From: Chloroflexota bacterium
GTDB taxonomy: Bacteria; Chloroflexota; Limnocylindria; P2-11E
DNA length: 58,524 bases
Direction: 5' to 3'
Assembly (NCBI GenBank): GCA_005889445.1
Contig: VBGS01000095.1
Location: 1 to 58,524, forward strand
This document shows positions 6,088-10,873 of the stretch, in pieces. Under the pieces are notes generated by a model that was given only the letters and a program-made list of their open reading frames with translations, was not told the DNA's origin and did no database searches. A program made the position numbers and the translations under genes. Every line of letters starts with the position of its first letter. The first letter of the stretch is position 1.

Positions 6088-8340
6088 CTACGCGGCCCCC
6101 ATCGCGCGAGCGAGCCCCTCGGCATGCGCGCGTGCGAGCGACGCGACCGGCGTGCCGAGGACCGGCACCACCTCGAGCAGGTCGCCACCGATCGCGCCGA
6201 GCGTCCAGAGCGCGACCTGATGCTCGGCCGCGAGCGCGCGGAGGTCCGCCTCGTGCCTCGGATCGAGCACGAGCACGATGCCCGACGGCGCCTCGCCGAA
6301 CAGCGCGGCGCGCTTGTCGATCCCGCGGTACGCCGGCAGCGTGACCTTCATCCCGATGCCGTCGCGGATCGCGAGCTCGGCCAGCGCGACGCCGAGGCCG
6401 CCCTCCGCGCGGTCGTGCGCCGCGCGGATGATGCCGCGCGCGTGCGCGGCGAGCACGAGCTTCTGCAGACGCGCTTCGAGCGCGAGATCCATCTGGACGG
6501 GCCCGCGATGGACGCCGTGCATCGCGCCGTAGACGGCCGCGTCGAGCGAGACCAGCGCGTTTCCGGCGAGGATCACGACGTCACCGGCACGGCCGGTGGT
6601 CACGGGGATGTGCCTGGTCACCTCGGCGAGATGCCCGACCGCGCCGATCGTCGCGGCCGGCCAGACGTCCTGTCCGCGGGTCGCGTTGTACAGCGACACG
6701 TTGCCCGAGACGACCGGCACGCCAAGCGCCTCGCACGCGGCCTTGATCCCGGCGACCGTCCGCGTGAGCTGCCACGCGCCTTTGGGGCGCTCGGGATTTC
6801 CGACGTTGAGGCAGTCGGTGATCGCGAGCGGCGTCGCGCCCATGCACACCAGGTTGCGCGTCGCTTCCGCGACCGCCAGCGCGGCGCCGGCGAACGGATC
6901 GAGTGCCGCGAGCCGCGGCTGCGCGTCGATCGCGATCGCGATGCCATCCTCCCGCCCCTTGATGCGCATGACCGCGGCGTCGCCGCCGGGTCCGACCACC
7001 GTGTCGGTGCCGACCATCGAGTCGTAGGTCCGGTACACGGCGCGCCGCGAGGCGATCGGGGGCGACGCGAGGAGCTCGAGCAGCTCGAGCCCGATCTTGC
7101 CGGTCTGTCGCGGCTCCTCATCGCGCTCCGCGTCTCCGGAAAGGCGCTCGTCGGAGACCGGTCGATAGGACGAGGCGAGCTCGGAGATGTCGTATTCGGG
7201 CGCATCGTCGGCGAGCGCGCGCGGCGGAAGCTCGGCGACGAGCTCATCGCGGTCGAAGATCCGCAGCACCGGCTCCGCGATTACCTCGCCGATCCGCGCG
7301 CCATGCAGTTCCCACCTGCCAAAGATCCGCTCGACCTCGCGTTCGCGACCGGGACGCGCGACGACGAGCATTCGCTCCTGCGATTCGCTGAGCATCACCT
7401 CGTGGGGCGTCATCGCGCGGGCGCGGCGCGGGACAGCACTGACGTCGATGCGCACCCCGACCCGGCTCTTCGCCGCCACCTCGCTCGCCGCGCAGGTGAG
7501 CCCGGCGGCGCCGAGGTCCTGGACCGCTTCGATCGCGTCGTCGGCGACGAGTTCGAGCGTCGCTTCGAGCAGGAGCTTCTCGAGGAATGGGTTCCCCACC
7601 TGGACCGAGGGCCGCTTCTCGTCGGAGCCCGCGCCGAGCTCGAACGACGCCAGCAGCGACGCGCCCGCGATCCCATCGCGCCCGGTGTCGCTCCCGACGA
7701 GGTACACGGCGCTCCCGGGGCGCGCGCCGGACGCGAAGCGAAGGTCCTCGGCGCGGGCGATCCCGACGCACATGGCGTTCACCAGGGGGTTCTCGGCGTA
7801 AGAGTCTTCGAACGAGATGTGGCCGCCCACATCGGGGATGCCGACGCAGTTCCCGTAAAAGGAGATCCCGCCGACGACGCCCGCGATCGTGCGACGCACG
7901 CCCGGATCGGTCGGCGGGCCGAAGAAGAGCGCGTTGAGCACCGCGGTCGGTCGCGCGCCCATCGCGAAGACGTCCCGCAGGATGCCGCCCACACCGGTCG
8001 CGGCCCCCTGGTACGGCTCGATCGCGGATGGATGGTTGTGGCTCTCGACCTTGAAGACGCACAGCAGGCCGCCGCCGAGGTCGACCGCGCCCGCGTTCTC
8101 GCCGGGCCCGACCACGACCGCGGGCCCGTTCGTCGGCAACGTGCGCAGGAGCTGCTTCGAGTGCTTGTACGCGCAGTGTTCGCTCCACATCGCGCCGAAC
8201 ATCGCCCACTCAAGCGCGTTCGGCTCGCGAGCGATGAGCTCGCGCACGCGGGCGGCCTCGTCGTCGGTCAGGCCGACTTCGTGGGGGATCTGGTTAGGCT
8301 GCGCCGTCGTCGTCCCCGTCATCGTCGGGGACGCGCTCAC
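6088..8340 (-). CDS. purL: phosphoribosylformylglycinamidine synthase subunit II
   Basis: 750 aa with ...EPNALEWAMFGAMWSEHCAYKHSK... and duplicated AIRS-like domains. Starts at GTG 8340, with GGAGCG upstream. The stop abuts the purF start. Confidence 0.95.
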   Translation of the reverse strand: MSASPTMTGTTTAQPNQIPHEVGLTDDEAARVRELIAREPNALEWAMFGAMWSEHCAYKHSKQLLRTLPTNGPAVVVGPGENAGAVDLGGGLLCVFKVESHNHPSAIEPYQGAATGVGGILRDVFAMGARPTAVLNALFFGPPTDPGVRRTIAGVVGGISFYGNCVGIPDVGGHISFEDSYAENPLVNAMCVGIARAEDLRFASGARPGSAVYLVGSDTGRDGIAGASLLASFELGAGSDEKRPSVQVGNPFLEKLLLEATLELVADDAIEAVQDLGAAGLTCAASEVAAKSRVGVRIDVSAVPRRARAMTPHEVMLSESQERMLVVARPGREREVERIFGRWELHGARIGEVIAEPVLRIFDRDELVAELPPRALADDAPEYDISELASSYRPVSDERLSGDAERDEEPRQTGKIGLELLELLASPPIASRRAVYRTYDSMVGTDTVVGPGGDAAVMRIKGREDGIAIAIDAQPRLAALDPFAGAALAVAEATRNLVCMGATPLAITDCLNVGNPERPKGAWQLTRTVAGIKAACEALGVPVVSGNVSLYNATRGQDVWPAATIGAVGHLAEVTRHIPVTTGRAGDVVILAGNALVSLDAAVYGAMHGVHRGPVQMDLALEARLQKLVLAAHARGIIRAAHDRAEGGLGVALAELAIRDGIGMKVTLPAYRGIDKRAALFGEAPSGIVLVLDPRHEADLRALAAEHQVALWTLGAIGGDLLEVVPVLGTPVASLARAHAEGLARAMGAA

Positions 8341-8577
8341 GATCGGGTGATCGCTCCGCGCTGCACCATCACGTAAAGACTAGCGTGCTGTTGACCAGCG
8401 GTTGTGCCTTCGTTACTTCCGAGTGCATTTTTGCTTTGGCCACCTGAGTATCGTGGCCCTGGGCTACGTCGGGCGTCACGGGAGGGGACCTATCTCACAT
8501 CGAGGCTCCAATCGGCTTCGCCGCGCGCCCAAACGTAGACCCACGTCGCGAAACCTCGCCCAAGGAGGGCCACATCG

Positions 8578-9228
8578 ATGTCAAGCCAGGAGAGAACGAC
8601 TCACGCGCGCGTTGTACGGCTCAAGGGTGAGCCCGCCAGCACCGACACAGCGATCAGGAAATGGACCAGCGAGATCTTCCCCTTGCTCAAGAAGCAAGAT
8701 GGTTTCCGCGGCGCGACCCTCGTCGGAAATCGCAAAACCGGCGACGGCTTGTCCGTGACCTACTGGGAAAGCGAACAGGCGATGAAGAACGCACGTCCGA
8801 AGGTCCGCCCCCAGGCGGAAACGATCTGGGCTCAGACGGGCGGGAAGATCGTGGACGACGACGAGTACGAGGTCGCCGTGCTTGAGCGGATCCAGCCGGC
8901 AAAGGCAGGCGTGTCCGTCCGGGTGACCACCGTCGAGGGCGATCCGGCAAAGCATGCCGAAGGTATCGCGAACTTCAAAGACAAGATCCTTCCGGTAGTC
9001 CGCAAGCAGGCCGGCGCGCGTACGGCGCTGCTGCTGGTGAATCGCAAGACCGGGCGGACCTTCTCGGCGACCGGCTGGGACACGCAGCAGGCTCTGGAGC
9101 AGAGCGAACCCGCAATCGCGGGCCTTCGCGACGAGGCGATCAAGAAGATCGGCGGCAAGAGCGGCAAGGTAGAGAAGTTCGAGGTGTATTTCACCGAGAT
9201 CCTCACGCCAGTCGGAGCGGCCAGCTAG
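8578..9228 (+). CDS. protein with two ABM/Dabb (ferredoxin-like) domains, function unknown
   Basis: AAGGAGGG RBS. Two homologous halves: ...GFRGATLVGNRKTGDGLSVTYWESEQAMKNA... and ...GARTALLLVNRKTGRTFSATGWDTQQALEQS.... Confidence 0.7.
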   Translation: MSSQERTTHARVVRLKGEPASTDTAIRKWTSEIFPLLKKQDGFRGATLVGNRKTGDGLSVTYWESEQAMKNARPKVRPQAETIWAQTGGKIVDDDEYEVAVLERIQPAKAGVSVRVTTVEGDPAKHAEGIANFKDKILPVVRKQAGARTALLLVNRKTGRTFSATGWDTQQALEQSEPAIAGLRDEAIKKIGGKSGKVEKFEVYFTEILTPVGAAS

Positions 9229-9305
9229 GTCCGATACAGAGTGTCGAGAGCCTGAGGGCGGGGCGGCGCGATCGGGTGCCGCTCCGCCAGCGGCGCGCTG
9301 CTCTC

Positions 9306-10157
9306 CTAGCTTGGTTCTGGGGAGCCGACGAACCGATCGACCTGATCGGCAAACGCCGCGAGATCGGTGACGCGCGTCTGGAGCTGGCTGTACACGTCGT
9401 CGATGTCGGTCTGTTCGCGATCGTAGGCGAGCAGGTTGCGCAGGTTGGCGAGGTGCTCGAGTCGGTATGCGAGCGCCCGCTCGATCACGCCCTGCTTGGC
9501 GATCGCATCGAGGATGTCGTGATACGCCTCGGGCTTCGCCAGCGCGAGCGCCGCGACCAGGTAGGCGCCGGTGCCGAAGAGGAGCTCGACGGCCTGCTGG
9601 AGATACCACTGGGCGAGCCCGTAAAGCTTCGGGTCGGCCTTGAACTTGGCGTGCTCGATCGGCCGCAGGTCGTTCAGCAGCATCGCGTACTCGCGCAGCC
9701 GCGCGAGCCGCGCGCGAACGTACTCGACGTCGATCGCGAAGCGGTCGCCGCGGGTGCGCTCGGCGAGCGCTTTCGACTGGACCTCGTCGTACTTCTTGAA
9801 CTCGAGGTACTCCATGACGGAACGCGTCTCGAATTGGACGCGCCGCTTCTCATCGCGTTGGTAGAGGAGGTTCCAGCTGCGGATGACCTGCGCCCGCTGC
9901 AGCAGCGACGCCTGGTTGAGGATCACCACGTCGAGACCCTCGGTCTCGAGCGTCTTGCTGAGCTCGGAGACGAAATAGACCTGGTACTCGAAGAACTCGC
10001 TCGCCTTCACCCCGCCCAGCAGGAGGAGCGCGATGTCCAGATCCTGGTACGACCCGGCGATGCGGCGACCGCTCGTGGTCCCCTGGGCGTAGGCCGCGTC
10101 GACCGGCGAGGTCTGGAAGAGGCTCTGTATCTGGGCCTGTCTCTCGAAGAGGTCCAT
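9306..10157 (-). CDS. fused minimal nucleotidyltransferase (MntA-like) plus HEPN/DUF86 (HepT-like) protein
   Basis: The N-terminal half has GTTSGRRIAGSYQDLDIALLL plus LDVVILNQASLL..LLYQRD, the MNT signature. The C-terminal half is DUF86-like and ends in LANLRNLLAYD, so the R-x4-H histidine is replaced by Tyr (nt 9423-9440). The ATG lies 2 nt after the purQ stop. Confidence 0.75.
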   Translation of the reverse strand: MDLFERQAQIQSLFQTSPVDAAYAQGTTSGRRIAGSYQDLDIALLLLGGVKASEFFEYQVYFVSELSKTLETEGLDVVILNQASLLQRAQVIRSWNLLYQRDEKRRVQFETRSVMEYLEFKKYDEVQSKALAERTRGDRFAIDVEYVRARLARLREYAMLLNDLRPIEHAKFKADPKLYGLAQWYLQQAVELLFGTGAYLVAALALAKPEAYHDILDAIAKQGVIERALAYRLEHLANLRNLLAYDREQTDIDDVYSQLQTRVTDLAAFADQVDRFVGSPEPS

Positions 10158-10159
10158 AC

Positions 10160-10873
10160 CTATCTATATAAAGCAGGCGCCGTGCCGTGCCGCACGCTTG
10201 TCAGGTTAGCGAGCATCCGATACCCATCCGTACCCCCGAGGAGACCTTCCGCACACCGTTCGGGGTGCGGCATGAGGCCGACGACGTTCCCAGCCTCGTT
10301 CGCGACCCCGGCGACATTGCCGAGCGAGCCGTTCGGATTGGCGTCCTCGGTCGCCGCGCCGCGCGCGTCCGCGTACCGGAAGACGACCTGTCCACTCGCC
10401 TCGACGCGCGCGAAGGTGTCGGGATCCGCGACCCAGCAGCCTTCCCCGTTGCCGATCGGCAGCTTCAGGACCGCGCCCGCGAGGGCGGTGGTGAACGGCG
10501 TGCGGTCGTTCTCGACGCGCACGTGAACCCAATCGCACCGGTAGCGCAGATCGCGATTGCGGATGAGCGCGCCGGGCAGGAGGCCCGCCTCGCAGAGGAT
10601 CTGGAACCCGTTGCAGCTGCCCAGCACCGCGCCGCCGTCCTCGGCGAAGCGGCGCAGCTCCCTCGTCGCGGGCGAGAGCTTCGCGATCGCGCCAGCGCGC
10701 AGGTAGTCGCCATAGCTGAATCCGCCGGGGACGATCGCGGCGTCGAAGCCCCGAAGGTCGGCGTCCTCATGCCAGAGGATCTCGCTCTCGATGCCGTCGA
10801 CGAGCGACAGCGCGTGCGCGAAATCACGCTCGCTCCAGGTGCCGGGGTACCGCAGTACGGCGACGCGCGTCAT
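10160..10873 (-). CDS. purQ: phosphoribosylformylglycinamidine synthase, glutaminase subunit
   Basis: MTRVAVLRYPGTWSERD...GSCNGFQILCEAGLLPG...MPHPER, the class I GATase triad. Confidence 0.95.
   Translation of the reverse strand: MTRVAVLRYPGTWSERDFAHALSLVDGIESEILWHEDADLRGFDAAIVPGGFSYGDYLRAGAIAKLSPATRELRRFAEDGGAVLGSCNGFQILCEAGLLPGALIRNRDLRYRCDWVHVRVENDRTPFTTALAGAVLKLPIGNGEGCWVADPDTFARVEASGQVVFRYADARGAATEDANPNGSLGNVAGVANEAGNVVGLMPHPERCAEGLLGGTDGYRMLANLTSVRHGTAPALYR

Follow-up and report, generated by a model that had tools for sequence, protein, structure and literature searches.

The window analysed here is a 58,524-nt stretch of contig VBGS01000095.1 from a Chloroflexota bacterium of the class Limnocylindria (assembly GCA_005889445.1, a metagenome-assembled genome (MAG) of 2.1 Mb and 80% completeness). 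Among its purine biosynthesis genes lies one that encodes a minimal nucleotidyltransferase (MNT) domain fused to a HepT-type HEPN domain. With moderate confidence, we read this gene as descended from a fused type VII toxin-antitoxin (TA) protein (FhepTA-type MntA-HepT), and its product as domesticated, RNase-dead and probably still able to bind or transfer nucleotides. Behind this reading stand the identity of the domains, the state of their motifs, the distribution and synteny of the gene, and the purifying selection on it. An earlier reading made from the sequence alone (the sequence-only reading) had also proposed a domesticated or inactivated TA module, and the loss of the motif, single-copy synteny and purifying selection support that proposal.

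Domain identity and motif states

The fusion gene and its parts are located in the window as follows.

9306-10157, minus strand: fused MNT-HEPN gene, 283 amino acids, stop codon at 9306-9308; both domains matched by Pfam and NCBIfam.
9753-10157, minus strand: MNT domain (minimal Pol-beta-type nucleotidyltransferase), residues 1-135; PF18765, NF047752 and a fold match to MntA.
9309-9740, minus strand: HepT-type HEPN domain, residues 140-283, catalytically degenerate; PF01934, NF047751 and a fold match to HEPN toxins.
9417-9440, minus strand: degenerate R-x4-H-x-Y motif, RNLLAYDR (R240, Y245, D246, R247), placed by alignment to Shewanella oneidensis HepT.

Both halves of the 283-residue fusion that the sequence-only reading had recognized are backed by profile and fold matches. 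The Pfam HepT-like family PF01934 (DUF86) covers residues 155-272 (E 8e-16, 58.3 bits vs a cut-off of 23.5), and the Pol-beta nucleotidyltransferase family PF18765 covers residues 9-104 (E 4e-6), its 27.3 bits barely passing the cut-off of 26.9. The NCBIfam profile HepT_toxin (NF047751) was passed with 60.8 bits against a cut-off of 60; the equivalog profile MntA_antitoxin (NF047752) scored 48 bits, under its cut-off of 60. Membership in the HepT profile is a statement at the level of homology only, and the equivalog name "RNase toxin" is unjustified.

An AlphaFold2 model made with 35 sequences, including distant MNT and fused ones, reached a predicted local distance difference score (pLDDT) of 83.6 and a predicted template modelling score (pTM) of 0.54, whereas a model made from just 27 close sequences had an unusable MNT half with a pLDDT of 30-47. 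By Foldseek, the HEPN half of the model superimposes on the solved HEPN toxins 7ae8 and 7ae6 with template modelling (TM) scores of 0.85-0.89 and a root-mean-square deviation of 1.5-1.8 A, and the MNT half matches the MntA chains 6m6v_A and 7aer_A at a TM of about 0.7.

Membership in the KNTase-like group (KNTase, AAD(9), LinB) was ruled out by a poor fold match and the lack of a C-terminal-domain match: a whole-chain Foldseek comparison with the two-domain antibiotic nucleotidyltransferases AAD(9) and LinB, and with 3c18, gave TM scores of only 0.22-0.26, and the Pfam scan of the fusion protein left the C-terminal domains of aminoglycoside and lincosamide nucleotidyltransferases (PF07827, DUF4037 and similar) unmatched.

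The nucleotidyltransferase (NTase) signature noted earlier as G-T...DLD plus LDVVILN reads G26-T27 (nt 10077-10082), D39-L-D41 (nt 10035-10043) and D76 (nt 9930-9932) within L75-D76-VVILN. In a phmmer search against the PDB, the HEPN segment LRNLLAYDREQ aligned to LRNIAVHDYQE of S. oneidensis HepT, so Tyr245 stands at the position of the catalytic His and Arg247 at that of the Tyr oligo-AMPylated in HepT, the two exchanges that had been read from the sequence. The coordinates given with them, 9423-9440, fit RNLLAY and fall short of the full RNLLAYDR. No R-x4-6-H occurs anywhere in the 283-residue protein, whose only three histidines are at positions 169, 213 and 235; an intact R-x4-H elsewhere, which the sequence-only reading had named as counting against it, is thus absent. 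The protein has no cysteines and therefore no redox switch.

Residue conservation was counted over 153 Limnocylindria family sequences. In the MNT domain, G26 is kept in 151, Thr or Ser at position 27 in 148 (with Thr instead of Ser in about half of the family), D39 in 146 with Glu in 7 more, D41 in 149, and D76 in 150 with Glu in the other 3. In the HEPN domain, R240 and D246 are present in all 153, R247 in 152 and Y245 in 146, with Phe in the remaining 7. The NTase carboxylates are retained in at least 95% of these sequences and in 98-100% of 120 sequences from Ktedonobacterales, and R240 and D246 show no exception in either set. Across the clade to which both groups belong, Y212 and H213 vary little or not at all, likewise D39, D41 and D76.

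The Phe found at position 245 in 7 scattered lineages rules out Y245 as an obligatory new AMP acceptor.

These motif states indicate that RNase activity has most likely been lost. They also fit a protein that probably can still bind or transfer nucleotides at the ancestral MNT-HEPN interface. In the structure of MntA-HepT with AMP-PNP, MntA residues D39, D41 and D71 bind two Mg ions, and HepT D103, located between His and Tyr, makes contact with the adenosine of ATP (PMC7641770). The numbering of the catalytic residues D39 and D41 is the same in the window protein as in MntA, and HepT D103 corresponds to D246.

Wider family

With HMMER, 1577 relatives (E up to 0.001) were retrieved from 1.8 billion cluster representatives, and 49 among the 150 best of these have the fused length of 255-370 residues. 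The more distant of these 49 (22-33% identity) keep GS...DxD, and nearly all have R-N-x-L-V-H-x-Y. The fused state, called unusual in the sequence-only reading, is therefore not so, given dozens of distinct fused relatives of about 285 residues with intact motifs and the characterized FhepTA (PMC13000451). In a maximum-likelihood tree the window protein falls into a Chloroflexota clade with support of 100/100, whose stem is long (0.76) and whose inner branches are short. Around it in the tree stand fast-evolving, motif-intact fused relatives with terminal branches of 1-2.5, among which it nests, and its nearest outgroups are motif-intact fused proteins of the FhepTA architecture.

Beyond Limnocylindria, the clade includes Ktedonobacterales, where 24 of 28 genomes of one family carry the gene, among them the cultured Thermogemmatispora, and it reaches a few genomes of three further families, two of which show other gene contexts. 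The acceptor Tyr is absent across the clade, being Arg in 152/153 Limnocylindria sequences and Pro in 119/120 Ktedonobacterales clusters. Outside Limnocylindria the His position holds His or, in several sublineages, Arg, Tyr, Ser or Cys.

In the genus with Thermogemmatispora (L042-L050, protein P0291), Val, Ile or Ala takes the place of the GS-motif Ser, and at the same time the HEPN His position holds Arg. Loss of the NTase serine may have gone hand in hand with loss of the RNase histidine in this genus.

In almost all Ktedonobacterales loci examined, the gene comes after moaD-moaE and faces a TPR gene. In detail (L055:5654-7024, plus strand; L061:6242-7939, minus strand; L129-L141), it is found on the same strand 100-500 nt downstream of moaE, a moaD-moaE pair or a moaD-moaE fusion. 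The orthologue is then followed by the convergent TPR gene and a GntR/UTRA regulator.

Distribution, synteny and selection in Limnocylindria

Gene distribution was sampled over 200 genomes of the class. Of the 66 genomes from the window's family, 59 carry a single copy of the fusion gene, and those seven that lack it are 70-86% complete; the gene is also present in the only sister-family genome of the same order (1/1); the orthologues are 62-92% identical. In the 133 genomes of three other families of the class it was not found, except for a separate two-gene MNT/HEPN pair.

That pair, at L033:5981-6790 (G107:C8:19989-20787), is of the classical unfused form, has 29-30% identity and is the sole match in 60 genomes of one other Limnocylindria family; it exemplifies the mobile, unfused state within this class.

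The junction between purQ and purL holds the fusion gene in 12/12 loci from those genomes and in 67/67 Limnocylindria loci from GTDB species genomes, with purQ readable directly upstream in 58 of the 67. The only readable upstream side without purQ belongs to a lake MAG (L123) with a 66% identical orthologue, where a Phd/YefM antitoxin-like open reading frame (ORF) stands instead (L123:2234-2587, plus strand) and purL follows directly. In most relatives, purL begins 0-70 nt downstream of the fusion gene. The sequence-only reading held that the gene separates purQ from purL; this applies across the order, but in the window it is not the sole separator, as a gene with an ABM domain on the opposite strand also lies between. 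Different inserts of 1-5.5 kb between the fusion gene and purL were seen in 7 of the 67 loci (L066, L071, L072, L073, L074, L098, L116), as in the window, and the fusion gene-purL junction is an insertion hotspot. In families without the fusion gene, purQ and purL are either adjacent or split by an unrelated double zinc-ribbon membrane protein, so the purQ-purL junction tolerates inserts.

The zinc-ribbon protein (L142:2242-3156 and L143:2246-3382, both plus strand) has 304-378 residues, two CPRCG...FC..CG zinc ribbons and a multi-pass membrane C-terminus. Several contigs with the purQ-fusion gene-purL block (L073, L075, L106, L109, L110, L124) are filed under MAGs of Bathyarchaeia, Acidiferrales, Gaiellaceae, Udaeobacter and Saccharimonadales; these Limnocylindria contigs in foreign-named public MAGs are most likely binning errors.

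Ratios of nonsynonymous to synonymous substitution (dN/dS) were estimated by the Nei-Gojobori method against five relatives, at dS values of 0.6-0.9 that are partly saturated. The values were 0.07-0.20 in the fusion gene, compared with 0.13-0.27 in purQ and 0.17-0.35 in purL. The HEPN half alone gave 0.07-0.15, and each domain is constrained. The amino-acid identity of the fusion protein between genomes is equal to or above that of PurQ and PurL, and 127 of its 283 positions are near-invariant across the 153 sequences. No frameshifts or stops were found in the fusion gene in 60 or more genomes.

A dead TA gene without function might be kept because its removal from an essential operon would disturb purL expression. 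The toxin motif is indeed degenerate, and an operon location could shield DNA from deletion. Such a relic is disfavoured by the selection data, namely the near-invariant positions and the low dN/dS in both domains, and the reading frame is intact throughout; moreover, the gene has been retained in several genomes, including that of the window, where inserts split it from purL. We consider this explanation very improbable.

The window gene's family shows none of the behaviour of a mobile module (patchiness, multiple copies, location in mobile elements, fast evolution). A search of the fusion protein against the PADLOC-DB defence models gave 0 families at E <= 0.01. A defence gene, one of the roles suggested by the sequence-only reading, is unlikely in view of the missing PADLOC match, the vertical single-copy inheritance and the dN/dS values.

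Observations against an RNase-dead nucleotidyltransferase

Several observations weigh against the reading that we favour. R-x4-H is still present in 113/120 Ktedonobacteraceae-type clusters, and because most of these orthologues keep it, the loss of RNase chemistry is not clade-wide. The carboxylates are not without variants: D41S occurs in three proteins (P0006, P0020, P0121) and D41G in the only sister-family genome, beside the Glu residues at D39 and D76 counted above. A D39E/D41E double mutant of MntA is inactive (PMC7641770). Given natural variants at the catalytic Asp positions, catalysis may not be the selected property everywhere. From its conservation, the Y212-H213 pair could be an alternative catalytic or acceptor site. 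The orientation of the two domains in the model is uncertain, as its pTM value shows.

Part of this evidence bears on the possibility that the protein is a still-active TA or abortive-infection module, in which RNase activity would depend on other residues (for example R240 and H213) and would be checked by the fused MNT domain. Across the clade, R240 and N241 never vary and H213 hardly does, most Ktedonobacteraceae orthologues keep the RNase motif, and inhibition by the MNT domain of FhepTA also works through a block on HEPN dimerisation, independent of AMPylation (PMC13000451). Against this stand the Tyr or Phe at position 245 in all 153 Limnocylindria sequences and the mixture of residues elsewhere, which imply relaxed constraint on the His, as well as the absence of the acceptor Tyr from the whole clade. 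Vertical single-copy inheritance without a mobile-element context, dN/dS and branch lengths typical of housekeeping genes, and the lack of a PADLOC match also argue against it. An active module is accordingly judged improbable.

Position within the purine genes

On the minus strand of the window, the purine gene string reads purD, purE, purB, purC, purS, purQ, the ORF at 9306-10157, purL and purF. The features around the fusion gene are listed below; FGAM stands for formylglycinamidine ribonucleotide.

10160-10873, minus strand: purQ (FGAM synthase glutaminase subunit), upstream neighbour; PF13507, E 5e-43.
10158-10171, minus strand: AT-rich rare-codon run TTA TAT AGA TAG (3' end of purQ) plus a 2-nt spacer, directly before the ATG.
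8578-9228, plus strand: ABM-domain gene between the fusion gene and purL; PF03992, E 6e-8.
6088-8340, minus strand: purL (FGAM synthase large subunit), usual downstream neighbour; AIRS and AIRS_C matches.

The spacer between the purQ stop (10160-10162) and the ATG of the fusion gene (10155-10157) measures 2 nt, as first noted from the sequence. Because the gene starts so close behind purQ, it is very probably co-transcribed with the purine genes.

The lower G+C content (GC) remarked on in the sequence-only reading is real, with 0.653 for the fusion gene vs 0.69-0.72 for its neighbours, and the whole deficit sits in the second codon positions (GC2 0.36). At third codon positions (GC3), the fusion gene has 0.905, compared with 0.912 in purL and 0.906 in purF, and the reduced GC therefore does not mark the gene as foreign. 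A recent horizontal insertion is ruled out by this native GC3 and by synteny held across the order, and the description of the gene as wedged into the operon, which suggests a recent event, does not suit a gene fixed at the purine junction in all 67 Limnocylindria loci.

The end of purQ directly before the fusion gene stands out by its codons. In the other pur genes, TTA accounts for 0 of 267 Leu codons and AGA for 1 of 240 Arg codons. Just ahead of the ATG stands the string TATATAGATAGGT, whose nucleotides are conserved across several genera (L062-L128), and even L123, with no purQ upstream, has an A/T-rich string of the TATAA type. There is no Shine-Dalgarno sequence at a usable distance of the fusion-gene ATG. 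These features suggest that the rare-codon run acts as an unstructured site of translation re-initiation or coupling; possibly, it is instead an internal promoter for a leaderless transcript. A scan of positions 8200-10400 for promoters and terminators gave no match. Both the position of the gene and the conserved run point to co-translation with the purine enzymes.

Such an arrangement raises the question of a purine-specific regulator or accessory subunit, which would sense ATP or GTP or AMPylate PurL, PurQ, PurS or PurF and so tune FGAM synthase or the pur operon. This would explain why the gene is locked between purQ and purL, with a purQ-side position that is constant across the order, and would agree with the conserved coupling signal at the 3' end of purQ, with conservation equal to or above that of purQ and purL, and with the keeping of the ATP-contacting residues. 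A fusion of PurF with a HEPN-type domain is on record from Methanospirillum hungatei (PMC3261824). However, the Ktedonobacterales orthologues adjoin moaD-moaE, which makes the purine link lineage-specific, and two further families have the gene in yet other contexts. The junction itself is permissive, as shown by the zinc-ribbon membrane protein in one family and the inserts in 7/67 loci, the orthologue in L123 has no purQ upstream, and MNT and HEPN modules are so abundant that a chance landing in a pur operon is possible. We regard a purine-specific role as unlikely, although it deserves more weight than an active toxin. Narrower and somewhat less likely again is the idea that the protein is an ATP/GTP-dependent regulator or a fourth component of the PurS-PurQ-PurL FGAM synthase in Limnocylindria, sensing purine nucleotides at a composite MNT-HEPN site or AMPylating a purine enzyme. 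In the broader wording of the sequence-only reading, the protein may have a nucleotide-sensing or regulatory role.

The ABM-domain gene is a strain-level insertion outside the conserved unit. It has a GC3 of 0.81 vs about 0.90 in its neighbours, and tblastn found no copy in any of 79 related Limnocylindria loci (12 + 67). Where the fusion and ABM genes converge, a GC-rich hairpin does not significantly exceed shuffled sequences in stability (z = -1.7).

The window's purS gene runs 4 nt into purQ. Many relatives have a purS-purQ gap of 0.4-0.9 kb, and some of up to about 1.6 kb (for example L065:4615-5284 and other loci of the same genus).

Comparison with known systems

The closest characterized architecture is that of FhepTA (SO_1440) from the S. 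oneidensis prophage CP4So, a fused MNT-HEPN toxin-antitoxin protein that AMPylates its own Tyr three times and whose HEPN half is toxic (Yao et al., NAR 2026, PMC13000451). Going by the published description of FhepTA, the window protein resembles it in being one polypeptide with an N-terminal MNT domain (GSx10DxD) and a C-terminal HepT-type HEPN domain, and in size (276 residues in FhepTA vs 283). FhepTA retains R-x4-H-x-Y and is associated with prophages and genomic islands, whereas the window protein has Tyr at the His position and Arg at the Tyr position and is chromosomal, single-copy, vertically inherited and slow-evolving.

For each half taken separately, the best sequence and fold matches are the two-gene type VII HepT/MntA systems, namely S. 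oneidensis SO_3166/SO_3165 (5YEP, 6M6V) and the HEPN/MNT pair of Aphanizomenon flos-aquae (7AE2-7AE9). Unlike the window protein, these are encoded by separate genes, have an active RNase and an acceptor Tyr, and are mobile and patchy in distribution.

HEPN domains fused to MNT domains tend to be inactive and to derive from domesticated TA systems that gave rise to non-toxic nucleotidyltransferases (Anantharaman et al. 2013, PMC3710099). The window protein fits this statement, as its MNT-fused HEPN domain lacks the RNase motif. It is also comparable to KNTase/ANT(4'), LinB, AAD(9) and GlnE/GlnD, which in the interpretation of PMC3710099 combine an NTase with a HEPN-derived helical domain without RNase residues that serves substrate binding or regulation. 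Unlike in those domesticated enzymes, the HEPN half of the window protein is still recognizable as DUF86/HepT, about 30% diverged from active fused relatives, and there is no specific relationship between them. A literature search, within the papers it covered, did not find this clade, its housekeeping-like evolution or its fixed place in a purine operon described.

Proposed history and meaning

The history that we favour, of domestication with loss of the RNase, would have begun in a Chloroflexota ancestor in which the Tyr that the MNT domain oligo-AMPylates was lost first. The gene would then have left the behaviour of a mobile TA module and become a vertically inherited, slow-evolving, single-copy gene. 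In the window's order of Limnocylindria, it would have settled between purQ and purL, and there the HEPN catalytic His would have become Tyr, sometimes Phe, with RNase toxicity most likely gone. Selection appears to keep the nucleotide- and metal-binding site of the MNT domain (G-[ST], D39, D41, D76) together with R240 and D246 of the HEPN domain. In the proposed mechanism, the MNT active site would still dock onto what was once the RNase loop, with ATP or some other NTP bound. The protein would either pass a nucleotide to some target that is not its own lost Tyr or act as a nucleotide-dependent binding protein, and it would be made together with the purine enzymes by translational coupling.

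If the protein does regulate FGAM synthase, a selfish element would have given rise to a post-translational mode of controlling de novo purine synthesis that is new in kind. If the retained NTase site of the domesticated protein has a new target, its discovery would widen the known scope of MNT-type AMPylators. The cultured Thermogemmatispora orthologues make the question testable.

The public annotation "HepT family RNase toxin" is probably wrong for this clade and would inflate counts of TA and defence genes in soil metagenomes. The gene offers a clean natural example of a TA module turned housekeeping gene: its nearest characterized relatives are mobile, self-AMPylating RNase toxins, yet in abundant, uncultured soil Chloroflexota this branch matches core purine enzymes in its degree of conservation.

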